This document shows, piece by piece, positions 21,223 through 49,672 of a stretch of 57,330 nucleotides of DNA. The notes beneath the pieces are model-generated. The model was not told the DNA's origin. It did not search any database and saw only the letters and a list, made by a program, of their open reading frames with translations. The DNA is from a virus. Its lineage: Duplodnaviria; Caudoviricetes. The DNA is taken from positions 1-57,330 of IMG/VR virus record IMGVR_UViG_3300027833_001471. The stretch is one strand, 5' to 3'. A program made the translations under genes and the position numbers. Every line of letters begins with the position of its first letter. The stretch's first letter is position 1.

Positions 21223-21230
21223 TTATGATA

Positions 21231-27722: not shown

Positions 27723-27739
27723 TATTTATGTTATAAATA
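27723..27739. promoter_or_regulatory. divergent late promoters (+ TATAAATA 27732-27739; - CATAAATA 27723-27730)
   Basis: Motif match between divergent genes. Confidence 0.65.
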
Positions 27740-27771
27740 CATTAAGTAGCCTAGTCAAATTAGCAAAGGAG

Positions 27772-28964: not shown

Positions 28965-28974
28965 GGAATATATT

Positions 28975-30231: not shown

Positions 30232-31381
30232 CCCTATTGGTGAAATGGTTATATGTTGTGCAGGTGACAACGTAGCGCTTTCTCATATCAAAAATGTAGA
30301 TGATCTTACTGATTTCTTTAATGGAGAAGTCTATGAAAAGCTACGTTCTGATTTCAAAGCAAAATCGTTTCCAAAACAATGTAATGTTTGTTGGAAGCAT
30401 TGGGATGCAGGGCGTATTGCTAGGTTTGACTCATATAACAGATTTGACTTTCCAACATATGAAGAAGACTTGGCGTCTGATGTTATTCCTATTAGGTTTC
30501 TTGAGATTACTACAAGCAACATATGCAATCAAATGTGTGTATCTTGTTCTGGAAAATATTCTTCTAAGTGGTCGCCATATGAGCAAATGGCTATTGACTC
30601 TGGCTTAACGTGGCGCAATGAAAACCACAAGTTCCATACTGAAACATATAAGATGACCAAGGCTGATGTTGATAAGGTTCTCGACATTGTACCTAATTTA
30701 CAGCACCTGACTATCAAAGGTGGTGAGCCTTTTGCTGATCCCAACAACATCAAGATATTAAAGAAGTTAGCTGAGACTAATCCAAGTTGTCGTGTAGAGA
30801 TATGCACGAATATGCAACTCGTAACTAACACTGTTATTGAAATATTACATCAAATAAATGAGGTACACATCCAAGCAAGTATTGATGGCGTACACGAAAT
30901 GTACGATTGGATACGTGGTGGCAACTTTAAAAGAACAGTGAATAACATTAAGCGATACCACGAACACTCTGGTCGTAAGGTTGTTATTGTGTCAACAGTA
31001 TCTGTATATAATTGGATGCATCTACCAGAACTTATTGATTACTGGAAAGATATTGAGGGTGTGGATAGAATTAGTATGGCTAATCTCGTTACCTTCCCTA
31101 AATATTGTAGTCCATGTTACCTAGACGTGCATCACATCGAAGAAGGTAGAAACAAGCTGTTTGATTATCTTAAGGATTGGAATAAAATTTCTGATACTTA
31201 TTATGAGACAGATAACCTACATTTATCTGGTATGAATAACATATTGAGTGTAGTGCAAGGCGATGATGATATTAAACTAATACAGGATAGAATGATACAA
31301 TGGATCGACTTTTGTTTAGTCGCTCGTGAAAACAATGAAGACATATATGAATTAGCACCATACTTAGAGGATTACAGATGA
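30194..31381 (+). CDS. radical SAM protein with SPASM/twitch-like Cys clusters
   Basis: CNQMCVSC, GGEPF, N-terminal CC and CxxC. Confidence 0.88.
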   Translation: MKCMVPETGLTINPIGEMVICCAGDNVALSHIKNVDDLTDFFNGEVYEKLRSDFKAKSFPKQCNVCWKHWDAGRIARFDSYNRFDFPTYEEDLASDVIPIRFLEITTSNICNQMCVSCSGKYSSKWSPYEQMAIDSGLTWRNENHKFHTETYKMTKADVDKVLDIVPNLQHLTIKGGEPFADPNNIKILKKLAETNPSCRVEICTNMQLVTNTVIEILHQINEVHIQASIDGVHEMYDWIRGGNFKRTVNNIKRYHEHSGRKVVIVSTVSVYNWMHLPELIDYWKDIEGVDRISMANLVTFPKYCSPCYLDVHHIEEGRNKLFDYLKDWNKISDTYYETDNLHLSGMNNILSVVQGDDDIKLIQDRMIQWIDFCLVARENNEDIYELAPYLEDYR

Positions 31382-32454
31382 GTTGGGATTTCTTTCAAAG
31401 CAACAGAACAATACCACAACACCATAAGTTAATAACGTGTTATGCTCCATTTAACCACATGCGAATTCGTAGAAATGGTGAAATGCATCCTTGCTGTTTT
31501 ACTACAAGTAAAACGAGATGGAAAAAAGATGAGGTTAGTTTAAAAGATTATTGGTTTGGTGAACTAAATCAATCGTACCAAGATGCAATGCTTGGCGGCG
31601 ATTTGCATAAAGGATGTGAGTTAGTATGTGGTACTAGGATAAAGAATAAAATTCACCCACCTATTAATGAATATGATTGGAATGTTGGGGATGAACGTTT
31701 AGAACACGCAATGGATGCCAGTTCTTATCCTAAAATATTCGAGTTTGAAATATCAAATCTGTGTAACATGGCTTGCCCAATGTGTAATGGTGAGTTAAGT
31801 TCAAAACACATGTTAGGTCGAGACAAAGATTTAAAAGTATACGATCCAAATGTATTCGACAATAATGAAAACTTAGACCAACTGATAGAACAGTTTAAAG
31901 AATTTATCCCACACCTCAAAGAAATTAGATTTGTTGGTGGCGAACCTTTTTCTCATAAGGGTTTGTATAAATTGTGTAGTGAGATTGCTGAAATTAATCC
32001 TGATATGAGAGTACAAATTTGTACTAATGGTAGTGTATTCAATAAAAAAGTTTTAAAGATGTGCCAAGAAAACAATTTAAAATTAACAATGTCAGTTGAT
32101 ACAATAATACCAGAAGAATATTCGCAAATACGAATTGGTGGCAATTACGACGAGACATTTGCAAATGTTAAAAAGTTTGCAGAATACTCAAATGAGGTTA
32201 CAGTGAACGCAACACTAATGTCTATTAACGCTTTAAACATTGATAAGCTAATAGCTTTTGCAAAAGAAAATGGTTTTGGATTCTTTATAAACATTTACTC
32301 AAGGAACGGCAGAAGCCACACGCCAGATTGGAGTATAAGCACAATGACAATCGATGATAGGAAAACCTCAATTGGTAGGCTTACTGCTCTATTGGGTGAT
32401 AAAGACTATGAGATATACCACGAAGAAATTCAAAAGGTTATTGATTTATTATGA
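31378..32454 (+). CDS. radical SAM protein with SPASM/twitch-like Cys clusters
   Basis: CNMACPMC, GGEPF, CYAPF...PCC. Confidence 0.88.
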   Translation: MSWDFFQSNRTIPQHHKLITCYAPFNHMRIRRNGEMHPCCFTTSKTRWKKDEVSLKDYWFGELNQSYQDAMLGGDLHKGCELVCGTRIKNKIHPPINEYDWNVGDERLEHAMDASSYPKIFEFEISNLCNMACPMCNGELSSKHMLGRDKDLKVYDPNVFDNNENLDQLIEQFKEFIPHLKEIRFVGGEPFSHKGLYKLCSEIAEINPDMRVQICTNGSVFNKKVLKMCQENNLKLTMSVDTIIPEEYSQIRIGGNYDETFANVKKFAEYSNEVTVNATLMSINALNIDKLIAFAKENGFGFFINIYSRNGRSHTPDWSISTMTIDDRKTSIGRLTALLGDKDYEIYHEEIQKVIDLL

Positions 32455-33068
32455 CACCAGATAATATTATATTCGTAAAACACGGCGATAAGTATAACGC
32501 TGGGCATGTAAATAGGCTACACAAACAGCTTAAAGAATACTTTCCTAATGCGGATTACCTGTGCTACACAGATGATCCTGTTGGCGTTAATATTGTCTGT
32601 ATGCCTGTTTTTACTAAACCAACTCTAAGATTTTGGTGGAACAAACTTGCCATGTTTAGTGAAGACTTTACAGTTGCTGGTGTCGTAGGTAAGTGCCTAT
32701 TCTTTGATCTTGATATGGATATTAAGGAAGACCCAAGTTCTTTCTTGAAGTGGGATGGGCTAACCATACTCAAAGACTATTGGAAAGACGATCTCTACAT
32801 GGCTCCACATGCTTATGATGTTCATATAAATAGTTCAGTAATCACATGGACTGCTGGAGAACAGACGCATATATGGGATCACTTTATGTCTAATAAAGAT
32901 TACTTCATGCGTAAGTATAAAGGCATCGACAGATTTTTAGTCCACGAAGGATTGGAGTTTAATACTTTCGATCATGGGCTTGTAAACAGTGTTGCTAATG
33001 AATTTAGAAATGCACCAATTGATATGTATAATGGAATGAAATATGAGCTACCTAGAAACAATCTATAA
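32451..33068 (+). CDS. GT-A glycosyltransferase-like protein
   Basis: KHGDKY, CYTDDP, WWNKL, FFDLD (DxD), NSSV. Confidence 0.7.
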   Translation: MTPDNIIFVKHGDKYNAGHVNRLHKQLKEYFPNADYLCYTDDPVGVNIVCMPVFTKPTLRFWWNKLAMFSEDFTVAGVVGKCLFFDLDMDIKEDPSSFLKWDGLTILKDYWKDDLYMAPHAYDVHINSSVITWTAGEQTHIWDHFMSNKDYFMRKYKGIDRFLVHEGLEFNTFDHGLVNSVANEFRNAPIDMYNGMKYELPRNNL

Positions 33069-33708
33069 AAATGCATTAAACGCATGTGAAGATATTTACA
33101 GAGAATCGCAATACAATAAAGACGTAGATTTGTATAGAAGCTACGACATTATGAACTCTGTCAACGAAACGCAGTTGAAAAGCAAGCAGTGGCTAGTTGA
33201 TACGCTAGTGCCTTTCCTTACAGATGAGCAATTCGAATGGTGTCCTCTACAGGATATTATTATTCTTGGTGGGTGGTACGGCATGAATGGCATGTTACTT
33301 CGCCAAAAGATAGACAACGATATTAATATTTGGAATGTCGATACAGATCAATGGTGTGAACATTACACAAACATGCTACAAGATGGCAACGATGACTATA
33401 AAAACAACCATTCGATCACTGACGATGCCTTAGACTACTTTTTCACAAGGGCTGATGCATACCAACTTATTATCAATACAAGTTGTGAGCATATGGAACC
33501 AGATGATATACGATTGATGCTTGGCGCGAAAACGCGCGAGACTATGATTTGTTTTCAAAGCAATAATTATCATTCTATCCAAAGCCATATCAATACACAC
33601 AATAGCTTAGATGAGTTTGTCGAGTCGTTAGACTTGGCTGGTGTTTTGTGGAAAGGTGAGAAGAAAGTAAATGAGGAATGCGATAGGTATATGGTGATAG
33701 GCGTATGA
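33043..33708 (+). CDS. class I SAM-dependent methyltransferase-like protein
   Basis: ILGGWYG, INTSCEHM, FQSNNY. Confidence 0.6.
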   Translation: MSYLETIYKNALNACEDIYRESQYNKDVDLYRSYDIMNSVNETQLKSKQWLVDTLVPFLTDEQFEWCPLQDIIILGGWYGMNGMLLRQKIDNDINIWNVDTDQWCEHYTNMLQDGNDDYKNNHSITDDALDYFFTRADAYQLIINTSCEHMEPDDIRLMLGAKTRETMICFQSNNYHSIQSHINTHNSLDEFVESLDLAGVLWKGEKKVNEECDRYMVIGV

Positions 33709-35414
33709 AAAGAGTTATTTTTACGACATATGACGATATTGAAAAAGAACAAGATCAATGGGGAACAAACCATTACGCTACTGAGTCTATTAAAACGTAT
33801 TTTGATAAACTAATCGCAAACAAAGAAGAATACGCTAACAGTCTAATTAACGTTGAGTTTAAATTTTACCATAACACAATGAAAGACTTTAATATTGATG
33901 CTGACTTAGAATTTACAAAGACTAATCTATACAAACACCATATCATGGCAGAGTTAGCTGATGATTACGATGAGGTTATGTATGTAGATATGGATGTTGT
34001 ATTCAACACAGAAAAGAACGTGTTTGACGAATTAGACTTGAGCGAAGGCATTCACATCCAAGTGCAAACAGATGAGGTCACGAACAAAGACATTGAAGGT
34101 GTCATGTTTGAAAATATCGGTAGTCGTAGCCCTACACTAAAGTATCACATCACGAAAGATTTGTTGGGTGGTGGAGACAATCATGTAATGAACACTGGCA
34201 TTATGATAGCCAAGTCAGAGCATATCAAACAGATTAAGTTTATGGAAAGATTGCCAAGTATCATTGAAAAAGTTGATGATCTTAAACGCAATGGCATTTC
34301 TGATGATCAATATAAATTTTTAAGAATGTATTACTATCCAAACAATGAATCTATATTTTCGTATATTATGGAGAGTGAAGCCATTCCATATGTTATTATG
34401 GAAGATAGATGGCATACACTTGTTGGCAAAGACCCCTCTGATTTAGATTGGGACAACATTGAGATAGCACACTTCATTAGCAAGAAGTTTAATATGTTTT
34501 TTAAAGACAAGACAAAGCTGATATATTCTATCTACATTGAAATACCCGACGAACGCTTAGACAATCCACGTGGACCTAACGATGATCCTGTCAATAAGAG
34601 TAAGCGAACACAAGAAAGATTGGCAGAATATAAAGATAAGTTGTATAATAACCATCTTGAATACGCACACAATCACGAAGCGACTTACATCCACTTTACG
34701 AGAGACAACCAATACGAAGAGTTTCGTGCTAGGTTCCCTGATCTATCAGAGTACGATGTAATCAATCTATATAAAGTATATCTATTAGATTACCTGACGC
34801 ATCAGTATGATCTGGTATTGTATGTAGATTTTGATGTTGTGTTTGTGTCTGATCATGATGTGTTTGGTTACCTTAGAGGCGAACATCTATTTTGCTGTTA
34901 TGCAACGAACGCTAAAGATGCTGGCGTAAATCTGTGGGATGCAAGGTATCTAAAAGCTTATGACAAAGACTTTAGATCGCCAGAAGCAAAGTATTGGAAT
35001 TCACATGCCATGTTATCTGAACAAGATGTAGACCCTGATAATTATGTTTTTAACACAGGTATCATGATGGCTAGTAGAGAAGTTATGGAAAAACTAGGGT
35101 ACTTTTCTGACATAAGCGAGACTATCGCTATGATGAAAGAACTCAAGGAAGACTCTATCTATCCACCTCAAGTACAAGCGTCTTTTGGTTACGATAACGA
35201 AACAATAATGTCATACAAAGTTAAAATGAATAACGTGCCTGTCCAAAGGCTATCTGATACATGGCATTTTAAGCATGTTGAGCAACCACTCGCCGCTTAC
35301 ACTAAGGGTACAGAAGAATACAAAACAAGCAAGTACACTCTTAACGCAGAAATAACTAAGCACAACAGCGTAATGGTTCACATGATTTCTAAGAACTTTG
35401 GATTACTTTTTTGA
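33705..35414 (+). CDS. tandem two-domain GT-A glycosyltransferase
   Basis: Internal duplication: YVDMDVVF/NTGIM/NNE and YVDFDVVF/NTGIM/DNE. Confidence 0.75.
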   Translation: MKRVIFTTYDDIEKEQDQWGTNHYATESIKTYFDKLIANKEEYANSLINVEFKFYHNTMKDFNIDADLEFTKTNLYKHHIMAELADDYDEVMYVDMDVVFNTEKNVFDELDLSEGIHIQVQTDEVTNKDIEGVMFENIGSRSPTLKYHITKDLLGGGDNHVMNTGIMIAKSEHIKQIKFMERLPSIIEKVDDLKRNGISDDQYKFLRMYYYPNNESIFSYIMESEAIPYVIMEDRWHTLVGKDPSDLDWDNIEIAHFISKKFNMFFKDKTKLIYSIYIEIPDERLDNPRGPNDDPVNKSKRTQERLAEYKDKLYNNHLEYAHNHEATYIHFTRDNQYEEFRARFPDLSEYDVINLYKVYLLDYLTHQYDLVLYVDFDVVFVSDHDVFGYLRGEHLFCCYATNAKDAGVNLWDARYLKAYDKDFRSPEAKYWNSHAMLSEQDVDPDNYVFNTGIMMASREVMEKLGYFSDISETIAMMKELKEDSIYPPQVQASFGYDNETIMSYKVKMNNVPVQRLSDTWHFKHVEQPLAAYTKGTEEYKTSKYTLNAEITKHNSVMVHMISKNFGLLF

Positions 35415-35684
35415 AGCCTTTTCAGCATCTTCTCGTTCGATTACACCCTTGAGTTCAGCAATGAGTTCTTCTGCTAACTCAACCTGTCTTAAGGTAATTC
35501 TGTGTGGAGTGTTAGGAAACAAAAACGGAATAAACGCATGAGTGTATCCAGTAATTGCATTGACCAAGCCAAAGGTACTTAGTTTTATAGCAAACCACAT
35601 GTGTTGGAAATATCCAGAACGAACTTCTTCTAAGTGTTCAGTATTAATCAAATAGCCATATCGGCCTAAGTTACCAAATTTCAT
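35403..35684 (-). CDS. DUF6356-like small membrane protein
   Basis: HL...GYFQHMWFA...HAFIPF. Confidence 0.6.
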   Translation of the reverse strand: MKFGNLGRYGYLINTEHLEEVRSGYFQHMWFAIKLSTFGLVNAITGYTHAFIPFLFPNTPHRITLRQVELAEELIAELKGVIEREDAEKASKK

Positions 35685-35890
35685 TTGTGATGCTCGAATG
35701 TTGTGTCTACTAAACTTGCCAATTTCTTTGCCGCATTCATAGATGATGCTTCAAGAGCAAATGGTAAGATAGCATGAATTGTACTTGTCACGAATACTGC
35801 TAATGACCAAAATACCATGTGTGATCCAATTTTAAGATGACCGAAGTATCCTGTGTCTGCCTTTTCGCAATGTGCTGTAAGTGTAGTCAT
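35681..35890 (-). CDS. DUF6356-like small membrane protein (paralog)
   Basis: HC...GYFGHL...HAILPF; GGAG RBS; late promoter at 35919-35926. Confidence 0.6.
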   Translation of the reverse strand: MTTLTAHCEKADTGYFGHLKIGSHMVFWSLAVFVTSTIHAILPFALEASSMNAAKKLASLVDTTFEHHK

Positions 35891-35928: not shown

Positions 35929-36543
35929 TCAATACCCAACAATTCCCAAAGCTGTCTCTGGTCTTACTCGAATATCCATGTAGTTAAACCAATCCGTGGT
36001 TCCTGTCTTTACGTGGTGATGATCTAATTGACTTTTTAAATGTTCTGTATCAAATGCACTCCAAAGAATACCTTTTTCATCTCGTGTGTATGATACATCC
36101 CCACCATCAAAGTTTAAATCATAATACTTGTCTCGAAATTTATCTAGGAATGTGTTGTTAGTTGGGTCTATGTAAGTGAATACAATCCTGTTCGTATATT
36201 TCGAAAGATGTCTAATGCAGTACAAAGCTTCATCTAATATGTGATGGGTAAACACACTATTCGCAAATACTATATCGTGCCATGGTATTTTTGGGAACGG
36301 CTCGTGAGCATTTCCGTTTGGGTTATAATAAGAGTGGTGTCTGTTCCAATGGATTGACTTCACGTTATTTGGTAAGGCATCTAATCCTTCTTTGCTAATA
36401 TCCAAGCACGTATACTTTTTAACATTAATTTCACCATCTAACAAGTTTCCCCTGTTACCACCAAAGTCTAGTACACTTTGCCAACTGTAATCAGGCACAC
36501 ACTGCTTAAATATAGCATATGTATTTGTTTTCCTAAACTTCAT
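35929..36543 (-). CDS. class I SAM-dependent methyltransferase
   Basis: VLDFGGNRG, CLDIS, DIVFANSVFTH. Confidence 0.8.
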   Translation of the reverse strand: MKFRKTNTYAIFKQCVPDYSWQSVLDFGGNRGNLLDGEINVKKYTCLDISKEGLDALPNNVKSIHWNRHHSYYNPNGNAHEPFPKIPWHDIVFANSVFTHHILDEALYCIRHLSKYTNRIVFTYIDPTNNTFLDKFRDKYYDLNFDGGDVSYTRDEKGILWSAFDTEHLKSQLDHHHVKTGTTDWFNYMDIRVRPETALGIVGY

Positions 36544-36719
36544 TTCTTGTTCCACAAAACTATTATCATGATAACCTCACGATAAATTGGGATCATACAC
36601 CCCACAAATCTTGTTGCTTTATCGCATTTTTTCCACACAAGTGATGGTGGATACTTTTCTGTCAACATGAAAGCTACAATAGTCACTAGTATATATTGAA
36701 TTATGAATAGTTCTATCAT
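36540..36719 (-). CDS. small membrane protein (59 aa, MIELFIIQYILVTIVAF...)
   Basis: Manual translation; ATGA overlaps at both ends fill the gap exactly. Confidence 0.65.
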   Translation of the reverse strand: MIELFIIQYILVTIVAFMLTEKYPPSLVWKKCDKATRFVGCMIPIYREVIMIIVLWNKK

Positions 36720-37288
36720 GGCAATATATCCGCAACTAAATGAATACGATCAATATCACTTGCATTTAATGCCGTGTGGTTACCCTTATCAGTATGAGCA
36801 AACGTCCAAAGTTCTAGTGGCAAATGCTTTACTTCGTCTTCAATGATCATAAGACAAGCTTCATCTGTTTGTATTGGGTAATGCAATCTTGGGATTGGAT
36901 CGATATGCCAATTCATACAAGTGTATGGTTTTGATTTTAATAGACGAACTCTGCCAATTTCATATTCAGTTTCCATAGCTTTATACATAGCTTCGAATAC
37001 TGTACCTTTAAAAACATCACACAACTCCCAGTCATATACTGACTTTGGAGACATTGGTATTCTAACATCTCCCTGTGGTGTAAGCCTGATGAAGAAGTCT
37101 GACTTACCTTTATCTGCGAAGTAACCAGCGCCAAAGCTGTAATCATCCGTATAGTCGGGTGCGGCGTTCAGACATATCTGTTGGGCGCTGTGTGGATTGG
37201 ATGGTTGGAACCATTCTAAATTTAAGCTGTCTAATTCTTCTAGCAGACCTTTAAACTGGGGCAACTTTATGTTATCATAATAAGTCAA
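36716..37288 (-). CDS. Fe(II)/2OG oxygenase, aspartyl/asparaginyl beta-hydroxylase-like
   Basis: GRVRLL, WHID (HxD), RLHYPI, HTALN, RIHLV; TTG start probable. Confidence 0.75.
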   Translation of the reverse strand: MTYYDNIKLPQFKGLLEELDSLNLEWFQPSNPHSAQQICLNAAPDYTDDYSFGAGYFADKGKSDFFIRLTPQGDVRIPMSPKSVYDWELCDVFKGTVFEAMYKAMETEYEIGRVRLLKSKPYTCMNWHIDPIPRLHYPIQTDEACLMIIEDEVKHLPLELWTFAHTDKGNHTALNASDIDRIHLVADILP

Positions 37289-39326
37289 TGTTGAACATCT
37301 CACTTTCTTTGCCTTCAATCGCTTTCAATACTTCATCGTAACTCTTGTCGAATATCGCTAGTTTGAGGAATATCCTATCATCATTTGAGAAGACGCTGTG
37401 CATCTGTTGTACGTTTAGTAAAGCACATTCATAGTAAACATCAATGTCTTCATCCCACGTAATAGGTCCCGATCCATTTAAAATTATATTTATAGCAGTG
37501 GCTGTTCCGTGATCACGATGAGCCGCTAAATGACTACCAGCTTCTTGGTGATAATATCGTGGGAATACTTCACACCCAACAATAGATGCTACTTGCCATG
37601 CAACCTCGTTAGCAACTTCACAGTCTTCAACATCATCAAATCTAATCACTTGTAACATTTCAAGTGTCTTCGTTTCCGTTTCGTTAGAGGCAGTAAATGC
37701 TTTAGATTTATCTTTATGCTCGTGGTATTCTGTTATCAAAGCATCTTTCAGTTCTTGAGTAACTGGTAGATTTTTCATATATTTTATGTTGGGTTCTTTC
37801 TCATCAACACCCAAGAACTTCACAACCTTTGAATAGTAACTCTTTTGCAGATATTGACGCGCCCTTCTTTTAATCATAGGGTTAGTGAACAACTCTGTGA
37901 ACGTCATTTTACGTAGCTCTTCGAATCCAAATCCAAGACATTGGTAGAACATCAAGAAAAATGTGGACACTTTTATCTCATCAAAATATCCTTCTTGCAA
38001 GTCTTTTACGTACTCAACAACCTCATCACTTGTCCAGTATTGGTTAGACCACTTGTTTTCCATATTAGATTGACGATCAATGGTATAACCAAAGTAATCT
38101 GATCTTTTGGATAATTCGGATGCAGTACCAAGTTCAAGAGGGCTAAAAGAATAAGCATCAAACAAATCCTTTCTTTCAAACAATTCCTTAGTCCATTCAT
38201 CCATTGTTTCTCTATTGTCGTGTGGCAATCCAGCAATGAAACTTCCATACACACTTAACGATCCACCGAATACTTCTTTTGACTTTTCAATCGTTTCAAA
38301 CACTTTCTCTTTTGGACAGCCTTTGCCAATTGATTTAGCTGACTCATAATTAAGAGATTCGACACCAAGAAACCACGCGCATACATTAATTCTTTTAAGT
38401 AAATCTAACTGTTGTGGGAATGCCGCTATAAGATCGATGCGAATGAAAGAAGAGAACTGCAACTTGACTGGAAGGTTCAGTTCTTCTATAGCCTCAGCAA
38501 TAGCCTCTAGTTTTACTGTTTGTTCGTTAAACGTGTCATCAATAATAACGTACTTCGTAGTACCATACAGATCATAGTTCTGCTGTAGTTCAGCCTTAAT
38601 GCATTCTTTATTCCTAAGAAAAGAATTGTCACCTTTCTTTTTACCTATAAGGGGATATGCACAGAACTTACATTTGAATATACAACCCCTACCAAACTCA
38701 ATGCCCATAGCATCTTCAGCATTCCAAAAATCTTCTGGGACGTAGTTTACTCTTTCGTTTCTAAAATCAAACAACGCACCTTTCTGGTCAAAATCAATAA
38801 CGTATGGGTAGTCTCCATATTCCTTGTTGTATTTAAGTTCTATTCCATTCTTGAGATGTTCTGTGATGTGAAGTGCTGGTGCTTCGCCCATGCCAACAAC
38901 AAAGTAATCCACACTTTCGCGTACTTCAGATGCGCGATAATAGGTCATCATACCACCATATACTGTCTTGACACCCTTCGAACGGATGTAGTCAGTCATA
39001 TCTTTTACTTCTTCATCACTGATAGGCCAACGCCAAAGAATGTTTTGCCTTGCACTATCACGAGTGTGGCGCTTGTTATAAACATCCTTACTCTTTCGCA
39101 TGAATAGAGAAGAACTAAACCCAACCCATAATGTGTTGTCACCAATTAGTTTGTCAAGGATTTCGTTTATGTTTCCTTTTTGCATGAAGTGGGTAAAGTT
39201 GTTCAATACAAATACTGAGTAGCCTTGATTTCTTAAATAGGACGCAATTTTATAACCACCAACAGCACGAGCCACGTTGAATACAGGGTCACTCCCCTCA
39301 GTCATAATGATAATGTCGTATGTCAT
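37275..39326 (-). CDS. B12-binding-type radical SAM protein with C-terminal Fe/2OG-like domain
   Basis: GRGCIFKCKFC, DDTFN, GVES, FIAGLP; C-terminal AHRD...MHSV...R. Confidence 0.82.
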   Translation of the reverse strand: MTYDIIIMTEGSDPVFNVARAVGGYKIASYLRNQGYSVFVLNNFTHFMQKGNINEILDKLIGDNTLWVGFSSSLFMRKSKDVYNKRHTRDSARQNILWRWPISDEEVKDMTDYIRSKGVKTVYGGMMTYYRASEVRESVDYFVVGMGEAPALHITEHLKNGIELKYNKEYGDYPYVIDFDQKGALFDFRNERVNYVPEDFWNAEDAMGIEFGRGCIFKCKFCAYPLIGKKKGDNSFLRNKECIKAELQQNYDLYGTTKYVIIDDTFNEQTVKLEAIAEAIEELNLPVKLQFSSFIRIDLIAAFPQQLDLLKRINVCAWFLGVESLNYESAKSIGKGCPKEKVFETIEKSKEVFGGSLSVYGSFIAGLPHDNRETMDEWTKELFERKDLFDAYSFSPLELGTASELSKRSDYFGYTIDRQSNMENKWSNQYWTSDEVVEYVKDLQEGYFDEIKVSTFFLMFYQCLGFGFEELRKMTFTELFTNPMIKRRARQYLQKSYYSKVVKFLGVDEKEPNIKYMKNLPVTQELKDALITEYHEHKDKSKAFTASNETETKTLEMLQVIRFDDVEDCEVANEVAWQVASIVGCEVFPRYYHQEAGSHLAAHRDHGTATAINIILNGSGPITWDEDIDVYYECALLNVQQMHSVFSNDDRIFLKLAIFDKSYDEVLKAIEGKESEMFNIDLL

Positions 39327-39327
39327 T

Positions 39328-40110
39328 CTATCCCTTACGCGGTCTATTAAAGTCTACTGTAGTTCCATCTCTACCTTTGTAAAAGAATATGCCATGTTTA
39401 GCGTCGAATGAAACTTTATCTTTAGTATCGTACCAATCGTCAAACACACATATATCACCTTCGACAAGCAAGTTGCCATCTCCAACAGAAATCCAACTAC
39501 AATTAATTATGTCCCCAAGAATAGTAGTGTTGGGTGGTGTAATTGATTTTGCATATTCTACTTCAGCCATGTTAGTAAACCTATGCATAATTGCATTAGG
39601 TCCTATTTCAGTCATGCCCCATATAAGTATAACTTCACACCCTCTTCCAACAAACGCTTCTATTATATCATATGTAACAGGCTCTGATCCAACTAGAAAA
39701 ATGTGTCCCTCAAGATCAAGAGTTTTAAATGTTTTAGTCTTCATAACAGCCTTGGCTTGTTTTGGGGTCAAGTGGCTGTGTGTGTATTTAGCTACATTCC
39801 TAACATAATCGTATGGATTAAACCTAACGAGATCAACTGTCGCACCTACGGAGAGAGCGGGTATTGTTTGTGCAAATAACCCCCCTGCCTTTTCTGGGCT
39901 TAAACATGTGTATATTACACTCGAATTGGTTATACGTTGTACATAACAAGCGTTCTTTGCATCTATTGCTATCTTTGATGGTGTTTGTTCAATTGCTTTT
40001 GGTTCACCACTTGTGCCTGACGTGTAAATGATCTTTCCATTTTCAATCACATCATCGAAGTAATTATTGTCATACTTATCATAAAACTGTCTAATCATCG
40101 AAGTAACCAA
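39328..40110 (-). CDS. compact adenylate-forming (AMP-binding) enzyme
   Basis: YTSGTSGEPK, WGMTEIGP, YDTKD, KGR. Confidence 0.82.
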   Translation of the reverse strand: MVTSMIRQFYDKYDNNYFDDVIENGKIIYTSGTSGEPKAIEQTPSKIAIDAKNACYVQRITNSSVIYTCLSPEKAGGLFAQTIPALSVGATVDLVRFNPYDYVRNVAKYTHSHLTPKQAKAVMKTKTFKTLDLEGHIFLVGSEPVTYDIIEAFVGRGCEVILIWGMTEIGPNAIMHRFTNMAEVEYAKSITPPNTTILGDIINCSWISVGDGNLLVEGDICVFDDWYDTKDKVSFDAKHGIFFYKGRDGTTVDFNRPRKG

Positions 40111-41221
40111 ACTCGAATTCTTTGTCTACATATCTTAACACATGATGACCCATGAACCTTTCGGTAATTGTTTTGAACATTTCATCATCTTGATTTGCAA
40201 CATATCTTTTCAAAACATTTGTCTGTTCGATACGTTTACTTGACGTCTCTTTAGCCCAATCCCAAAACTCATTTTCGTATATAGAACCACCATGGTAGAT
40301 CAGGTTGATTAAATCTTCTACTGCACGATAGTTTAGGATACATAGTTCGTTAGCTTTATCTTGGGTAATTTCTCCACGTATGTATTGAGAATGAATTTCG
40401 GCATTCTTGACTGTCATGTAAAGAGAGTTTGCACTCATTGGTTCAAAGAACACTGCTCGGTTCCCACTCTTTAGTATTTTGCCATCAATCGTTTTCTTAC
40501 AATAATATGGTTTTAAATCAAATGTTCTAAAATTACTCCTATCATCATCTGATGCTTCCGTGATGCGAATAAGTTCATCTTCTGCTTCTTTACGTGTGCA
40601 AAACTCATTATTGTATAGGAAACCATGGGATGTTCTGTGTTGTAGTGGGATAACAAACATCCAACCATACTTGTGGGCAACGTGTTTAGTAAAGCCAAAA
40701 TCAGATGGGGTTGGATCATCGTAAACTAATGCAGAGTTTAAAACAAGGTTACACTCTTCGTAATCAGAGAAATTTGTTGGTCTGCCACGACAATCAATTA
40801 CATAATCATATTCTGTCAAGTCTTTATATTCTACGTTAGCATCAACACGTCTATAATTAGAGTACATCTTTTGTAATCTCTTCAATCCCATTTCGGCAAA
40901 ATCACGAGCATCAAAGTGAATAGCATGATAACCAGATTGGAATGGAAATATGATTTCTTTTTCGCGCCAATCAATATACTGCGTACCATACTTAGTCGTG
41001 CTGTTGAGTTCTTTTGCTTCTGTTGCGAATATGAAATCAAATGCTTGACCAATTGCAAACGTCACTTCAGACGTGGTACTTTCTCCAACCCCAAGAATGG
41101 GTTTGTTGCTATCGTAGATGTGAGTTACCTCGCAGTCAATGCCTCTGTTCTTAAAGTCTTTTAGTATACAACCAGTAGTTAAGATGCCTGCACTACCAGC
41201 ACCAAGTATTGCAATCTTCAT
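40091..41221 (-). CDS. flavin-dependent tryptophan halogenase-like protein
   Basis: GAGSAG, GVGESTT, GWMFVIPL, FFEPMSA. Confidence 0.8.
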   Translation of the reverse strand: MKIAILGAGSAGILTTGCILKDFKNRGIDCEVTHIYDSNKPILGVGESTTSEVTFAIGQAFDFIFATEAKELNSTTKYGTQYIDWREKEIIFPFQSGYHAIHFDARDFAEMGLKRLQKMYSNYRRVDANVEYKDLTEYDYVIDCRGRPTNFSDYEECNLVLNSALVYDDPTPSDFGFTKHVAHKYGWMFVIPLQHRTSHGFLYNNEFCTRKEAEDELIRITEASDDDRSNFRTFDLKPYYCKKTIDGKILKSGNRAVFFEPMSANSLYMTVKNAEIHSQYIRGEITQDKANELCILNYRAVEDLINLIYHGGSIYENEFWDWAKETSSKRIEQTNVLKRYVANQDDEMFKTITERFMGHHVLRYVDKEFEFGYFDD

Positions 41222-41730
41222 TCGTCACCCCTAACTTCAAAATATCTATCAGCATTTAATAACCAAATATTCTGATCTACCCCAAACACTTCTTCAGTGC
41301 TTACTAGGTCTACCAAACCATTTCTTTCGAGAATGTAATATAGCTTATTAAGTCTTCCCATCTTGCCACTTGCATCGTTATTTATGTTGGTTGTAATGTA
41401 TATTGGATCGTTAGTAGCATATATGACCTTTGGAAGATGGTAGTAGAACATCCAACAGTTCATATGGTTTTTGCTCAAACCCTTTGGTCTTGAGTATAAT
41501 TGACATCCTCTATATAAAGCCCTAACGCCATCTCTAAATTGATGTACACCAGATATGCCTACCATCTTGCCATCAACTGATGTCTCGAACCACACGCCAC
41601 CATCGTCAAGAGTCTTTTGGAAATTCATGACTTCTAACGAGTTGTTGTTTTTATAACCAAGTTTGTCACATTCTTCTATAAAAGTTAGAAGTTGGGGTGT
41701 CACTTCGTGTAGTTGATTAGTGCGTATCAT
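41218..41730 (-). CDS. GNAT-fold-like hypothetical protein
   Basis: DGKMVGISG...RALYRG pattern; weak. Confidence 0.45.
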   Translation of the reverse strand: MIRTNQLHEVTPQLLTFIEECDKLGYKNNNSLEVMNFQKTLDDGGVWFETSVDGKMVGISGVHQFRDGVRALYRGCQLYSRPKGLSKNHMNCWMFYYHLPKVIYATNDPIYITTNINNDASGKMGRLNKLYYILERNGLVDLVSTEEVFGVDQNIWLLNADRYFEVRGDE

Positions 41731-42974
41731 GAGAACTTGAATTCTAAATCTTTGTATACGGTAGTTGACCCAAACATCGCTGGTAATAGTTCTGGCTCTT
41801 TCGTAATCTCAAAATTGTCAAACCTATCAAGCAAGCTATTAATTATCATTTCAAGAAAGTGCTTGACAAGGAAGTCGCCAGTACAGTGGTGAGGTCCGTA
41901 AGCAAGGGTTACTGGAAGTGGTTCGTCATCTCGTTCAAGACTAAACTCTAGGGGATTTTTAAAGTATTTGGGGTCACGGTTTGCTCCATATGTATACAAA
42001 AGAATTCTACCATTTGCATCAAACTTGTATCCATGGTAATCTATGTCTTCTGTGATATCACGTATGCCACCCTTTAGTGGGGCGAGACGCATACTTTCTC
42101 TTGCAAACTTTGAGACAAGTGTTCTATCTGCTTTAATTCTCTTGACAATATCAGGATACTTGGCAAGGTTCATAGCTAGGTTCTGGTACATACTCAGAGC
42201 AAAGGTTGGAATTACAACAGTCCATAAGCTTTGGATAAACATATATCCCATCCTACGTGGGTTGTCATTGTATATCCATTGCTTGTCACTCAAGTTCTTC
42301 GTCATATTAATCATTGTATCGTCATCAACACCCTCAAGATGATAATAGCTAATAGCTTCATCTACGATACGTGCAAACATATTATAGAACTCAGTAGTTT
42401 CGGCAACTGGCTTATCGTAGTCAAAGTCTGGGTTGAAATTAGAGAAGACACCCCCAGGGCGCATCCACTCGTGAAAGCCATCCTTAACATAATCCTCTGA
42501 CACATCTAGTTCTGCCCAAGGAAATTCTATAGTCTGTATCTGAGTGTCGGTAACAATCCTACCGATGACGTCATAAGACACGAATGGTTTGTTCTTTTCT
42601 ATCTTATCGAACCATTTGTCTATATTTGACTTCAGCGCGTCAATCATAAAGCCAGAACGTCTTTTCGCCCAATTAAGGCTTTCCTTCTTCGCAAGATGAT
42701 GATGCGGACCTTCTCTTAGTGTCAATGCATAACCTGCTCTCCAAATACCACCAAGTGGTGTTGGGTCAAAAGGTGCTGGTGATGTCTTAGCTAAGCTGAA
42801 TTCTTCATTCATCTTTGAGGCTTCTTTGAGCCTATCCATTGAGAAGATTATCCAGTGTTTGTATATTGGATGCCAAAAGAAACCTCTTGGTTCGTTTTCG
42901 AAACAAAAAGTAGTGTGTTCATCCATGTTATACAGGAAATCGGGATTAACGATTTCAAAATCATTTTTTCTCAT
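41727..42974 (-). CDS. cytochrome P450
   Basis: ESMR (ExxR), ANRDPKYF, heme-ligand loop AYGPHHCTG. Confidence 0.9.
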   Translation of the reverse strand: MRKNDFEIVNPDFLYNMDEHTTFCFENEPRGFFWHPIYKHWIIFSMDRLKEASKMNEEFSLAKTSPAPFDPTPLGGIWRAGYALTLREGPHHHLAKKESLNWAKRRSGFMIDALKSNIDKWFDKIEKNKPFVSYDVIGRIVTDTQIQTIEFPWAELDVSEDYVKDGFHEWMRPGGVFSNFNPDFDYDKPVAETTEFYNMFARIVDEAISYYHLEGVDDDTMINMTKNLSDKQWIYNDNPRRMGYMFIQSLWTVVIPTFALSMYQNLAMNLAKYPDIVKRIKADRTLVSKFARESMRLAPLKGGIRDITEDIDYHGYKFDANGRILLYTYGANRDPKYFKNPLEFSLERDDEPLPVTLAYGPHHCTGDFLVKHFLEMIINSLLDRFDNFEITKEPELLPAMFGSTTVYKDLEFKFS

Positions 42975-42989
42975 AATATACTCTAATTG

Positions 42990-43292
42990 TTAGAGGTCGG
43001 CAGTCTCTGGTGTAAATGAAATAGTCCAACCATCTGAAATCAAAGATGCCTTTGCAGAAGCAGAAACATTAGCCATAAGAGTAGTGTATTGAGAAGCGGC
43101 TTCATCTGTCCAGTTTGTTACAATAGTATGTGTCCCTGAGTCTACCGACGTAGTTGTTGTTCTACCACCATTTGTAGTTTGCTCATTGAGAAAAGATAAT
43201 ACATCAGAAGGCAGATAACTAGCAATATGAGAAAGAGCCTCATCTGTAGTGATATCTGTTGGTGGTGTGAAAGTAACTGTTTGTTGTACCAT
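42990..43292 (-). CDS. Thr/Ser-rich 100-aa protein heading the late P450 operon
   Basis: AAGGAG RBS; TATAAATA at 43311-43318. Confidence 0.75.
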   Translation of the reverse strand: MVQQTVTFTPPTDITTDEALSHIASYLPSDVLSFLNEQTTNGGRTTTTSVDSGTHTIVTNWTDEAASQYTTLMANVSASAKASLISDGWTISFTPETADL

Positions 43293-43310
43293 ATTTAATC
43301 TCCTTTTGTC

Positions 43311-43318
43311 TATTTATA
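43311..43318 (-). promoter_or_regulatory. T4-type late promoter
   Basis: TATAAATA on the minus strand. Confidence 0.7.
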
Positions 43319-43823
43319 CGTTATCCCAGAAACTCTTCTTCTTTCTACCATGTACGATTAAATGCAACCTATCTTCGTTAGAGTTGTTCTCAACCCAATG
43401 TGGGTAATGCACATTAAGGACAAATGATGCCCCAGAGTGATAAGGAACTTCTTTCCCATCTAATATGAACTTACTTCCTTTTGGATATGTTATTGACATA
43501 TTAAGAGTGTCAAGCCAATTGTGTTCTGGTACATCTCTATGTTCAGCAATCATACCACCAGACTTTATAAGCAGAAACCTACAATCATCTATTTTATCAT
43601 ATGGTAATGACTTAATAAAATCTGTAGTCTTAGGACATTTCAATCCTACTTCTGTGATATTATCTTTTAAGAACAAAGATACAGCAAACCAGTCTTTATG
43701 ACCATCTTGTGGTCTATTGATTGTTAATGTTTCTTTGACTGATAAGTATTCTTGTTCTATATCATGACAAGGAACATTAAAGTTCATTTTAACCCAAGGG
43801 ACGTCACTGCTTCTATAATACAT
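43314..43823 (-). CDS. Fe(II)/2OG oxygenase, aspartyl/asparaginyl beta-hydroxylase-like
   Basis: EHRD (HxD), HWVENNS, RLHLIVH. Confidence 0.78.
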   Translation of the reverse strand: MYYRSSDVPWVKMNFNVPCHDIEQEYLSVKETLTINRPQDGHKDWFAVSLFLKDNITEVGLKCPKTTDFIKSLPYDKIDDCRFLLIKSGGMIAEHRDVPEHNWLDTLNMSITYPKGSKFILDGKEVPYHSGASFVLNVHYPHWVENNSNEDRLHLIVHGRKKKSFWDNV

Positions 43824-43870
43824 AATTTACCTTAATTAGAATCTTATTGTATATCATAAGGGATAACCCT

Positions 43871-43940
43871 ATTATACATGACTTAGAAAGTTTGTCAAGC
43901 AAAAAGTAACTGTTGACAACAAGTATTTATAGTGTAGAAT
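43871..43940. promoter_or_regulatory. divergent promoter region: - TTGACA-16-TATAAT (43871-43898), - late TATAAATA (43924-43931), + TTGACA-16-TAGAAT (43913-43940)
   Basis: Motif matches. Confidence 0.6.
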
Positions 43941-43941
43941 A

Positions 43942-46247: not shown

Positions 46248-46679
46248 ATGAGTAGCTACGAAATTGTTTTGATAATACATATCTTGGCAGTAATATCATG
46301 GATGGCAGGGCTGTTCTATTTGCCAAGAGTAATGGTGTATCATTCCCAAGAGACGAAACCTGGGGATGATATGGATAAAGTTTTCCAAACAATGGAAGTA
46401 AAACTGTTAAGAGCAATAATGATGCCAGCAATGTTTGCCACATTATTCTCTGGTATTGCTTTGATTGGTTTGGGATACGTTGATTGGTCACTCACGTGGC
46501 CTTATGTAAAGCTTGTGAGTGTATTCTTGATGTTTGGCTTTCATGGCTTCTTGAGTAAACAGCGTAAGAACTTTATCAAAGGTGAGAATATCCCATCACC
46601 AAAGAAGATGCGGATATTAAATGAAGTACCTACGATCTTGTTGATCATTATCGTGGCGTCAGTAATTCTTAAATATTAA
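46248..46679 (+). CDS. hemJ: protoporphyrinogen IX oxidase HemJ
   Basis: HILAVISWMAGLFYLPRVMVYH, IMMPAM, RILNEVPT. Confidence 0.93.
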   Translation: MSSYEIVLIIHILAVISWMAGLFYLPRVMVYHSQETKPGDDMDKVFQTMEVKLLRAIMMPAMFATLFSGIALIGLGYVDWSLTWPYVKLVSVFLMFGFHGFLSKQRKNFIKGENIPSPKKMRILNEVPTILLIIIVASVILKY

Positions 46680-48116: not shown

Positions 48117-48151
48117 AAAGGGGTTGCTAGTTAATACAGCAACCCTTTTTT
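48117..48151 (+). terminator. intrinsic terminator after the porin
   Basis: AAAGGGGTTGCT...AGCAACCCTTTT. Confidence 0.8.
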
Positions 48152-48160
48152 GTTTCTTTG

Positions 48161-48168
48161 TATAAATA
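48161..48168 (+). promoter_or_regulatory. T4-type late promoter upstream of the heme oxygenase
   Basis: TATAAATA. Confidence 0.65.
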
Positions 48169-48197
48169 CAAGAAAGCAGTGCAAAGAGAGGTATATT

Positions 48198-48740
48198 ATG
48201 ACAAATAAACTAAAACAACTCACATGGGCGCATCACCAAGCGGCTGAACGTCGAAAGTTCGCAAAGCAATTAATCAGTGGTGGCATTGATCCTTTCGTAT
48301 ATTACAAATTTCTAAACTGCCAGTATCTCGTATACAAGATGCTCGAAGAACTTGTAATCATTCCACCCAATCTAACAACAATCTATAGAGCGCCTCGTAT
48401 CCTACAGGATATCGAAGAGCTTAGCGAAATATATGGCTTTGATGATATTGACCATTACCCCAAATCAGTCGGTAAATGTATGACGCATATGCAAGGTCTT
48501 GCAGACGCAGACAATAATGACGGTCTACTATCACATATGTACGTTCGTCACTTTGGTGAATTACATGGTGGGCAGATAATCAAAGCCAAGACCCCAGGTA
48601 AGGGTATCATGTACGAATTTGAAGGTGACACTAAGGTTCTTATCGAAGAATTTAGGAAGCTTCTCCACGATGGTATGGAAGAAGAAGCCAAGCGTTGCTT
48701 TGACTTCGCTTCAGAATTATTTGATGAGCTATCAAAATAG
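48198..48740 (+). CDS. hemO: heme oxygenase (phage HemO/Ho1-like)
   Basis: LKQLTWAHHQAAE (proximal His), HMYVRHFGELHGGQII, EEAKRCF. Confidence 0.9.
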   Translation: MTNKLKQLTWAHHQAAERRKFAKQLISGGIDPFVYYKFLNCQYLVYKMLEELVIIPPNLTTIYRAPRILQDIEELSEIYGFDDIDHYPKSVGKCMTHMQGLADADNNDGLLSHMYVRHFGELHGGQIIKAKTPGKGIMYEFEGDTKVLIEEFRKLLHDGMEEEAKRCFDFASELFDELSK

Positions 48741-48769
48741 TTGACAAATCGGAGTTTTTGTTATACAAT
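48741..48769 (+). promoter_or_regulatory. sigma70-like promoter TTGACA-17-TACAAT
   Basis: Consensus match. Confidence 0.65.
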
Positions 48770-48803
48770 AAATCTATTATAAACCACATAAGGAGTGTCC
48801 AAG

Positions 48804-48971
48804 ATGCAAGATCAAGCATTAGAAGAAATTAACCTTAAACCAAAGCCGAAGGCTGAACGACTTGCCAAAGATGTTGCGGCAAGGAAGCGTCGAAAAGAAG
48901 CTAAAGGTATTATAGAAACTCGAACGACTAATGAGTATAATAGACTACGTAGGGAACGTAAAAAGAAATAA
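48804..48971 (+). CDS. small very basic protein (55 aa)
   Basis: Manual translation MQDQALEEINLKPKPK...RRERKKK; AAGGAG RBS; TAATG coupling. Confidence 0.65.
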   Translation: MQDQALEEINLKPKPKAERLAKDVAARKRRKEAKGIIETRTTNEYNRLRRERKKK

Positions 48972-49672
48972 TGTTATTTAAATTTAAAAAAAATACAATA
49001 ACAGTAGACGCTTTTACTGATCAGGAAAATGTTGCCAAGACGCCAATTGCTTCTAGCACAAAATATGTTCCTGATTGGTTTAAGTCTATGAAGCCTACCA
49101 AGGCGTATGCCCAAGATGGGATGGTGGTTGTCTCTAGTACATTCAAGAAGTGTCCTGGAATGATCGACAATCTAAAGCACAGCTTCACTATCCCAGCATG
49201 GTCTGACTTCATTGTCAAGGCTACAGATAATGGCATCGTCAAACAGTTCCCTCATTCTGAATTTGATTATGGGGCGCAATATCACAATGACCCCGAAACA
49301 TCACCTATTGGAGCATTCGCACCAAAAGTGCATGTTAAGATTTTGTCGCCGTGGTATCTCAAGGAAAAGTCAGGCGTAAACTTTTATCAGTCACAGGCGT
49401 TCTGGTCATTCAACGCAACCAATTCTACTATATTGATACCACCGGGTGTTGTTAATTATAAGCACCAACACAGTACACATATCAACATGTTCATAACTAA
49501 AGATTTGCAATGTGATTTTGAACGTGGTGACGCATTAATGTATTTGCACCCAATGTCTGAGGACAAAGTTGTTATCAAAACACATGTAGTAGATACAAAT
49601 GAATACAACAAGATCAAAGGGTCTACATATTACCCCAAGTTCACAAATGGGTATAGGGAGATGATGGAATGA
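48971..49672 (+). CDS. conserved marine-phage hypothetical protein
   Basis: PDWFKSM, TFKKCPG, KILSPW, PGVV motifs. Confidence 0.7.
   Translation: MLFKFKKNTITVDAFTDQENVAKTPIASSTKYVPDWFKSMKPTKAYAQDGMVVVSSTFKKCPGMIDNLKHSFTIPAWSDFIVKATDNGIVKQFPHSEFDYGAQYHNDPETSPIGAFAPKVHVKILSPWYLKEKSGVNFYQSQAFWSFNATNSTILIPPGVVNYKHQHSTHINMFITKDLQCDFERGDALMYLHPMSEDKVVIKTHVVDTNEYNKIKGSTYYPKFTNGYREMME

Follow-up and report, generated by a model that had tools for sequence, protein, structure and literature searches.

A 57,330-base virus record of IMG/VR (IMGVR_UViG_3300027833_001471; completeness 26% in CheckV), referred to here as the window because it is the whole stretch that was analyzed, carries an operon of 12 coupled open reading frames (ORFs) on its minus strand (Table 1). 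The operon is genuine, translationally coupled, and under purifying selection in uncultured T4-like marine phages. Its invariant core consists of a cytochrome P450, a GNAT-fold protein (g170), a minimal adenylate-forming enzyme (mini-ANL), a radical S-adenosylmethionine (SAM) enzyme, and a methyltransferase (MT), which are usually accompanied by cupin oxygenases, a halogenase-like enzyme, and small membrane proteins. Within a much wider family of phage cassettes, in which a mini-ANL stands beside a GNAT-fold protein and often a DUF6356 protein, no more elaborate form was found. The operon is conserved, undescribed, and absent from sequenced phage isolates.

The junctions across the 12 ORFs range from a 44-nucleotide (nt) overlap to a 38-nt gap, and start and stop codons overlap by 4 nt at places within the operon. 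The boundary was extended to 35403 because 12 of 15 relatives show synteny of the two tandem DUF6356 genes. A first-pass annotation of this DNA had described the ten genes from Oxy169 to MT as a tightly coupled minus-strand run; the ORFs lie as it claimed, and their junctions run from the 44-nt overlap to a 21-nt gap.

Table 1. Positions, strands, and contents of the operon features and of other gene blocks in the window (aa, amino acids; Fe/2OG, iron/2-oxoglutarate)
Feature	Position	Strand	Content and basis
Upstream control region	43824-43941	-	Motif matches: TATAAATA (43931-43924) and sigma-70-type promoter (43898-43871)
Oxy169	43314-43823	-	Asp/Asn beta-hydroxylase-family Fe/2OG-type cupin; Pfam PF05118, 2.5e-16
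T100	42990-43292	-	Thr-rich 100-aa protein; AAGGAG ribosome-binding site and upstream TATAAATA
P450	41727-42974	-	Cytochrome P450, apparently an orphan family; Pfam 1.1e-11
g170	41218-41730	-	GNAT-fold protein; predicted structure
Hal376	40091-41221	-	Short (376 aa) flavin-dependent halogenase-like enzyme; Pfam PF04820, 2.3e-28
ANL260 (mini-ANL)	39328-40110	-	260-aa adenylate-forming enzyme core; AMP-binding 1.1e-17
rSAM683	37275-39326	-	Radical_SAM 4e-16; fused to C-terminal dioxygenase-fold domain
rSAM683 residues 1-514	37785-39326	-	B12-binding-like N-terminal domain and radical SAM core (C-IFK-C-KF-C)
rSAM683 residues 515-683	37275-37784	-	Fused double-stranded beta-helix (dioxygenase/cupin) domain
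Oxy200	36716-37318	-	Asp/Asn beta-hydroxylase-like cupin; Pfam 3.9e-4, sub-cut-off
TM59	36540-36719	-	Small hydrophobic protein; translation
MT	35929-36555	-	Class I SAM methyltransferase-like; Pfam PF08242, 3.1e-5, sub-cut-off
Two tandem DUF6356 small membrane proteins	35403-35890	-	Pfam PF19883, 1.4e-6 and 4.1e-10
Linked neighbor block	27732-35414	+	Late-promoter motif, 62-aa ORF, S/T-rich p334, p199, p218, two radical SAM, p205, p221, tandem GT8 (glycosyltransferase family 8) GT569
CsgG/curlin-repeat block	15017-23566	-	IscA-like Fe-S protein, L5 gp82-like, class 3 lipase, 683-aa CHASE2-nucleotide cyclase, curlin-repeat protein, FecR-like, CsgG
Heme oxygenase/bilin reductase genes	48150-50355 and 46248-46679	+	Heme oxygenase and ferredoxin-dependent bilin reductase around a 233-aa gene; UPF0093/HemJ-family membrane protein near

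The window contains 14 copies of the late-promoter motif TATAAATA, where 4.7 would be expected, and 0 of 100 shuffles reached 14. On the minus strand, one site is in the upstream control region, a second (43318-43311) overlaps the Oxy169 stop codon 18 nt ahead of T100, and a third (35926-35919) lies upstream of the DUF6356 pair. The sigma-70-type promoter of the control region is a 12/12 match (TTGACA-N16-TATAAT), and an 11/12 match on the plus strand (43913-43940) points the opposite way. The first-pass annotation had spoken of a late operon. The motifs taken alone make this possible, and an early-type promoter is equally well matched, so 'late' would not be the whole story. RNA libraries from two studies contain short contigs that match parts of the radical SAM gene, the mini-ANL gene, the g170/P450 junction, Oxy169, and T100, the last in all four runs, with DNA carry-over possible. 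This coverage is a hint of expression and not proof of transcription, and the uncovered parts of the operon carry no information either way.

Conservation of the gene core and the wider cassette family

Relatives were collected from IMG/VR by scans with the P450 and with the mini-ANL alignment, which yielded 18 other P450-carrying contigs. Fifteen of the 18 span the region from P450 to MT, and the synteny counts of the operon genes use these 15. The P450, g170, mini-ANL, radical SAM, and MT genes keep an identical order in every one of them, at 40-100% amino-acid identity, while the flanking genes vary. Oxy200 is found in 14 spanning contigs, the halogenase-like gene in 12 (absent in 3), at least one DUF6356 gene in 12, and TM59 in 7 (tblastn). 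T100 is present in 6, exactly those with a GT8 block, and Oxy169, an accessory gene, in 1. Eight contigs have the dioxygenase-fold domain fused to the radical SAM enzyme, six have it as a separate 167-169-aa gene, and one (L009), where Oxy200 is also absent, is without it. Independent assortment, which the first-pass annotation had set against its own proposal, is thus seen for Oxy169 and T100 and not for the core.

The ratio of nonsynonymous to synonymous substitution rates (dN/dS) was 0.03-0.16 for the enzymes where dS could be estimated, 0.12-0.16 for TM59, and 0.35-0.47 for the fast-evolving T100; of 27 gene pairs, 11 had a saturated or undefined dS. The first DUF6356 gene (DUF6356a, 35403-35684) has a dS of only 0.09 against contig L008 amid saturated neighbors (dS >0.9), which suggests recent recombination inside the operon.

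The mini-ANL alignment scan gave 197 viral loci, and 80 of these were examined: 17 bear the P450 and 63 are distant (39-52% identity), with a P450 in none of the 63. A g170-like GNAT gene adjoins the mini-ANL gene in 42 of the distant loci and is fused to the next gene in two more (44/63). A further family, F2 (~255 aa), is present beside the mini-ANL/GNAT pair in 41 of the 63 loci and is fused to the GNAT protein in L084 and L085, and a second family, F3 (~235 aa), is present there in 22. F2 and F3 are P-loop-like families, perhaps with a resemblance to sulfotransferases, that are related to each other (87% probability) and occur across L069-L131. One representative of each had no Pfam match; the PDB search gave nothing for F2 and one non-significant match for F3 (E 0.95), and profile comparison found both unrelated to p205, p221, and MT of the window. 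DUF6356 adjoins the mini-ANL in 20 of the 63 loci, and a 140-150-aa family in 15, one member of which weakly matches the C-terminal cupin domain of the radical SAM enzyme. QueC-like PP-loop proteins (12 loci), further radical SAM genes (8-9), and TctA transporters (9) also recur. Because the pairing holds across distant loci, the operon is regarded as the fullest version of a modular system that has mini-ANL plus GNAT as its minimal core.

These data bear on the view that there is no common pathway and that unrelated auxiliary genes have simply piled up in a hypervariable island. The region does lie in the variable part of a T4-like genome, which holds such islands according to the main text of Zaragoza-Solas et al. 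2020 (PMC7029224). Oxy169, T100, TM59, the halogenase-like gene, and DUF6356 vary in their presence, and recombination has made the operon a mosaic, as seen at DUF6356a. However, five genes stay in constant order between differing flanks, fusion and fission tie the radical SAM enzyme to a cupin and GNAT to F2, and the mini-ANL/GNAT pairing recurs in most distant loci. An assembly without a common pathway is largely refuted for the core and is highly improbable overall, and the operon is very probably a real, functionally linked unit.

The whole region had no megablast match among 50,697 deposited phage records, a set outside which records very close to the window may fall. In the same records, tblastn gave no match for P450, the radical SAM enzyme, g170, DUF6356a, or T100, and one weak partial match for the mini-ANL, which was not in Pelagibacter phage Mosig (MT647606). 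The halogenase-like gene is the sole tested member of the operon with relatives there. A full-text literature search, which did not extend to the supplementary tables of the nearest papers, found no paper on such a phage operon. The first-pass annotation knew of no described phage operon with the full combination, and neither the phage records nor the searchable literature contradicted it. The protein families of the operon occur in many marine metagenome collections.

Enzymes of the operon and their candidate substrates

The gene list of the first-pass annotation proved correct, on the basis of Pfam and two structure predictions; B12 dependence and the methyltransferase are the weakest family calls. 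Oxy169, the P450, Hal376, the mini-ANL, and the radical SAM core all score above the curated Pfam cut-offs. The P450 exceeds the PF00067 gathering score (44.6 against 22.8 bits) and has the heme-thiolate motif YGPHHCTG with an invariant C364 and an invariant E293xxR296 (14 sequences). It was aligned to P450tol, and its nearest PDB entries are P450tol and CYP153-type enzymes. The I-helix acid-alcohol pair (A/G)Gx(D/E)T is absent, and an invariant V-I-P-T aligns to G-H-D-T of 7v40. In a collection of 5.8 billion proteins, relatives have at least 66% identity, and the next matches (E 7e-14) cover the C-terminal heme-binding third alone. The P450 thus appears to be an orphan family found solely on viral or metagenomic contigs.

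Hal376 has the FAD (flavin adenine dinucleotide) motif GxGxxG as GAGSAG and matches the Trp halogenases of the PDB at 3e-11. Its K77, invariant in nine sequences, aligns to the Lys of N-A-S-Y-K in 9lmg, which we take to be the catalytic Lys of Trp halogenases. The WxWxIP motif is replaced by an invariant GWMFVIP (second W to F), and the Glu of EPLES by Ser in an invariant FFEPMSANS. The enzyme would perhaps halogenate or oxygenate. Its relatives occur in 69 deposited phage records, mostly of Synechococcus and Prochlorococcus phages, at ~28-35% identity; those named 'tryptophan halogenase' in S-SSM5, S-SSM7, and S-ShM2 share ~33% identity with it.

The AMP-binding match of the mini-ANL is restricted to profile positions 167-359 of 384. 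The motifs A3 (SSGTSGxPK) and A5 (WGM(S/T)E), D231 of A7, and R247 of A8 are conserved in 25 members of a family of 121 clusters, all of 160-276 aa. Pfam and NCBIfam scans gave no match for g170. The first-pass annotation had called it GNAT-like, and its AlphaFold model (pLDDT 85.6) agrees, matching several GNAT acetyltransferases in Foldseek (probability 1.00, E 8e-6, TM 0.5-0.6); a lead from the Atlas also supports the predicted GNAT fold.

In rSAM683, the Cys residues of CxxxCxxC (C215, C219, and C222) are invariant in 24 sequences. The B12-binding profile PF02310 matched at E 0.009, or 5e-4 with the N-terminal 209 aa alone (16-20 bits against a cut-off of 32.1), and the B12 radical SAM matches in NCBIfam are far under their cut-offs. 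The family forms a tight group at 53-96% identity, followed by many ~33%-identical relatives of 500 aa without informative names, many of which carry PF02310. The best PDB match is an unnamed radical SAM protein (9ccb, 1.3e-6). Profile search of the C-terminal domain (last 169 residues) found no Pfam or PDB sequence match. Its model is a double-stranded beta-helix (pLDDT 91.8) that is structurally closest to prolyl hydroxylase PHD2 (E 9e-7), followed by PolD, SnoN, P4H, and AspH. An H-R-D...H motif is present in seven of nine aligned sequences, with R-T-E instead in L013 and L014, and hhalign found no relation to Oxy200. The claimed fusion of a B12-type radical SAM enzyme to an Fe/2OG-like domain therefore stands for the fold of the fused domain, as modeled, while the B12-binding domain remains below cut-off. 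Cellular relatives of the radical SAM enzyme (32 loci at ~22-35% identity in Bdellovibrionota metagenome-assembled genomes (MAGs), Enhygromyxa, and others) showed no homologous cluster; AspH-like or 2OG neighbors, which recur in 3 of the 32 loci, are the sole common trend.

Oxy169 scores 60.4 bits against the Asp_Arg_Hydrox cut-off of 22.6. Oxy200 reaches 20.7 bits against the same cut-off, its L013 orthologue reaches 38.2 bits (1.7e-9), and the residues H138-x-D140...H181 and R191 are invariant. MT falls under its Pfam cut-off (25 against 30 bits).

Several of these matches would fit membrane-lipid remodeling, in which a fatty acid would be activated and amide-linked, as happens in lipid A or an aminolipid, after which the P450 and LpxO/OlsC-like cupins would hydroxylate it and the radical SAM enzyme would add a C-methyl group. 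The best matches of the mini-ANL are long-chain fatty-acid CoA ligases (2e-13), the radical SAM enzyme matches a 'lipid biosynthesis B12-binding/radical SAM protein' (1e-16) and HpnJ/HpnR, Oxy169 weakly matches LpxO (8e-6), and the P450 matches CYP152 (4.8e-10) and CYP153-type alkane hydroxylases. The operon encodes three small membrane proteins, and in a Bdellovibrionales MAG a radical SAM relative has a fatty-acid desaturase two genes upstream of it. However, these families are the largest of their superfamilies, so weak best matches point to them by default. No lipid-type acyltransferase was found, and the structural matches of the GNAT protein are generic acetyltransferases. Lipid remodeling is therefore considered unlikely.

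The combination of B12 radical SAM enzyme, P450, Fe/2OG hydroxylase, halogenase, methyltransferase, and GNAT recalls the tailoring of peptides that are made on ribosomes and modified post-translationally (RiPPs), such as microbisporicin and the polytheonamides. In such a case, the enzymes would act on the side chains of a genetically encoded substrate, for example T100, or of a structural protein. T100 contains 21 Thr in 100 residues, evolves fast, and stands behind a late-promoter motif and a strong ribosome-binding site. Weak matches to ApyD (9e-7) and ApyO (1.3e-4) and the SPASM-type radical SAM genes that adjoin the operon point the same way, and phage beta-hydroxylase-type dioxygenases have been proposed to hydroxylate co-encoded tail or collagen-like proteins (text of PMC2938197). 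Nevertheless, 9 of the 15 spanning contigs have no T100, and its distribution follows that of the GT8 block instead of the core, so the Thr-rich protein of the first-pass annotation exists but is not a universal partner. Both of its ends are kept, including the C-terminal GWxISFxPETADL, and its middle is variable, unlike a leader-core precursor. No family was found for it in Pfam or NCBIfam scans; a PDB profile search gave one non-significant match (E 0.31), and Atlas leads were weak. No other universal small ORF was found, and no leader peptidase or recognition element was detected. Peptide or direct protein modification is thus rated as distinctly unlikely, below the lipid alternative.

A free small molecule, that is, a diffusible oxidized, methylated, and possibly halogenated acyl-amide or amino-acid-derived metabolite, would agree with an enzyme set that is typical of tailoring steps. 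The nearest NCBIfam matches of the P450 include TxtE, SolI, and cyclodipeptide-associated P450s (1e-12 to 1e-13), the halogenase Lys is conserved, the core occurs without the GT8 block in 9 of 15 contigs, and TctA-type transporters are found in the distant cassettes. On the other hand, Pfam and NCBIfam recognized no scaffold-forming enzyme (nonribosomal peptide synthetase, polyketide synthase, terpene synthase, or cyclodipeptide synthase) and no carrier protein among the 12 genes. A natural-product gene cluster has a scaffold enzyme or a precursor peptide, and T100 is not universal. The operon of the window is also without an exporter, and all matches are far under family cut-offs. A diffusible metabolite is accordingly placed on the unlikely side, though ahead of lipids and peptides. 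A comparably low probability is given to a broader statement, namely that a self-contained pathway of the secondary-metabolism type is carried by abundant T4-like phages, presumably lytic, that infect streamlined ocean bacteria. This pathway would unite an orphan viral P450 family, a radical SAM-dioxygenase fusion, a lid-less mini-ANL acting with a GNAT, and a halogenase, and during infection would yield a new methylated, oxidized, and possibly halogenated acyl-amide, free or surface-displayed, with no cellular counterpart cluster.

The glycosyltransferase block and a possible surface decoration

The GT8 block is convergent with the operon in the window and is co-directional and contiguous with T100-P450 in L009, L011, L012, and L020. 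T100 and GT569 are both present in the same six spanning contigs and both absent in the other nine (10-kb flanks); because the contigs are related, this co-occurrence serves as a lead and has no statistical weight. Directly after baseplate gp8 and VrlC, Mosig carries homologues of p334, p205 (in two copies), p221 (with a methyltransferase annotation), and GT569. The same tailoring island holds epimerase, carbamoyltransferase, MoaA-like radical SAM, sugar aminotransferase, and methyltransferase genes, and counterparts of the Mosig tailoring genes (50-63% identity) immediately adjoin mini-ANL/GNAT cassettes in L127, L081, L121, and L124. Related contigs carry UDP-glucose (uridine diphosphate glucose) dehydrogenase, QueC-like PP-loop proteins, and extra radical SAM genes.

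Because of the GT8 block, the T100/GT569 pairing, and the Mosig tailoring genes beside the cassettes, the decoration of a glycan or glycoprotein in the envelope or virion with an acyl-amide is placed first among the explanations, tentatively and at clearly less than an even chance. In this scheme, all operon enzymes would act on one substrate. The mini-ANL would activate a carboxylic acid to an acyl-adenylate, and the GNAT-fold protein would transfer the acyl group onto an amine. The acyl or acceptor part would receive a C-methyl group from the B12-type radical SAM enzyme, hydroxyl groups from the P450 and from two or three Fe/2OG-type cupins, perhaps a halogen or oxygen from the flavin enzyme, and an O- or N-methyl group. 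The small membrane proteins would keep the pathway at the membrane. The likeliest acceptor would be either a glycan or sugar or else a glycoprotein rich in S/T, for which T100 and p334 are candidates. The adjoining GT8 block would handle this acceptor, and the outcome would be an unusual decoration of the infected-cell envelope or the virion.

A number of points weigh against such a decoration. P450s, flavin halogenases, and B12 radical SAM enzymes more often use aromatic, peptide, or lipid substrates, and the weak best matches of the mini-ANL, P450, cupins, and radical SAM enzyme lean to lipid enzymes. All functional matches are at superfamily level and far under the equivalog cut-offs of NCBIfam, and no enzyme has an assigned substrate. 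The ~165 residues at the start of the domain are missing from the mini-ANL, as is the C-terminal lid that bears the catalytic A10 lysine, so its adenylation activity is putative. The P450 keeps the Thr of the I-helix pair and has Pro in place of the acid, and the fused cupin domain has lost HxD in L013 and L014. Nine of the 15 relatives have neither the GT8 block nor T100 within 10 kb, the focal operon has no sugar-nucleotide enzyme, and the window lineage has no aminotransferase. In addition, the co-occurrence counts are drawn from related contigs and are not independent events.

Within the GT8 block, the 62-aa ORF and the S/T/G/N-rich p334 (27772-28964, plus strand) follow TATAAATA at 27732, and p334 is possibly a structural or fiber-associated protein. 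In two adjacent radical SAM proteins (30194-32454, plus strand), a SPASM-like motif rich in Cys precedes the core and lies N-terminally, at residues 3-67 and 21-65, and relatives in L010 and L017 have it in the usual C-terminal position. The N-terminal motif could reflect a permuted architecture or shifted gene boundaries.

The phage, its other genes, and known systems

The phage was initially assumed to be a classical T4-like cyanomyophage, which was ruled out by the relatives of four proteins. The closest relatives of the gp41-type helicase are Methylophilales phage Melnitz and Sinorhizobium phiM phages (51-53%), and the best matches of the T4-type topoisomerase II encoded in the window are Aeromonas phages. 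Mosig is the best phage match of the bilin reductase (34%) and the sole one of p334 among the 50,697 records. The phage looks pelagimyophage-like from these similarities, and its host is more likely to be a streamlined marine heterotroph than a cyanobacterium.

The minus-strand block at 15017-23566 resembles the pelagimyophage 'curli operon' of PMC7029224, whose passages on that operon mention neither a CHASE2 cyclase nor a lipase. The block was also considered as a duplicate of the operon from its equal ORF sizes (683 and 377 aa), which was rejected because it encodes CHASE2-cyclase, FecR-like, curlin-repeat, and CsgG proteins. The first-pass annotation had credited the phage with its own heme and Fe-S supply: IscA-like and UPF0093/HemJ-family genes are present, but the adjoining heme oxygenase and bilin reductase consume heme. 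The 233-aa protein between these two enzymes (48971-49672, plus strand) is without family and is homologous to F23, which lies two genes upstream of DUF6356 and mini-ANL in L091-L096. Near the topoisomerase genes and far from the operon, an ORF at 6177-7082 (plus strand) shows 29% identity to a Mosig 'putative epimerase'.

The chemistry of the hypervariable islands of marine T4-like phages, with their glycosyltransferases, dioxygenases, and radical SAM enzymes, lacks tests, and the operon offers a well-delimited, conserved, and widespread test case. It would also give a new P450 family, a natural radical SAM-dioxygenase fusion, and a minimal adenylating enzyme paired with GNAT, all of which are compact enzymes that interest biocatalysis. 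Should the product serve to decorate the host envelope or the virion, it would bear on superinfection exclusion and host recognition in the most abundant bacteria of the ocean.

Among known systems, the pelagimyophage hypervariable islands with GT8 and radical SAM cassettes (main text of PMC7029224) and the Mosig genome share with the window phage a T4-like marine background, GT8, radical SAM cassettes, an Asp/Asn beta-hydroxylase, and a curli-type CsgG block. Unlike the operon, that main text mentions neither P450 nor halogenase, and tblastn found no homologue of the P450, g170, radical SAM enzyme, DUF6356a, T100, or mini-ANL in Mosig. In the cyanophage neighborhoods of Iyer, Abhiman, de Souza, and Aravind 2010 (PMC2938197), Fe/2OG-type dioxygenases of T4-like marine phages stand in tandem together with flavin halogenase-like genes, and the text proposes that these modify peptides or metabolites. 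In the operon, by contrast, dioxygenases are a minority, and the core of P450, GNAT, mini-ANL, radical SAM enzyme, and methyltransferase is absent from the clusters described in that text. Phage-encoded biosynthetic gene clusters are reported to be rare and mostly found in temperate phages of commensals and pathogens (Dragos et al., 10.1101/2020.10.01.322628; summarized in PMC10452541). They resemble the operon as multi-gene specialized-metabolism loci on phages, whereas the operon belongs to a T4-like, presumably lytic marine phage and has no recognizable scaffold synthase. VirX1 (PDB 6qgm), a marine viral flavin-dependent halogenase of the Trp-halogenase superfamily, matches Hal376 at E 2e-6; it has 531 aa against 376, and Hal376 differs in its Ser for the EPLES Glu and its F for the second W of WxWxIP. 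The B12-dependent radical SAM methylases TokK (7kdx) and CysS (9n1b) and the related radical SAM enzyme AprD4 (6fd2) share with rSAM683 a CxxxCxxC core and apparently a B12-binding-like N-terminal domain (profile matches at E 3.5e-4 to 5e-3), but they are very distant, and the dioxygenase-fold fusion is unseen in those entries. Whatever its product, the operon belongs with the known tailoring islands of T4-like marine phages.

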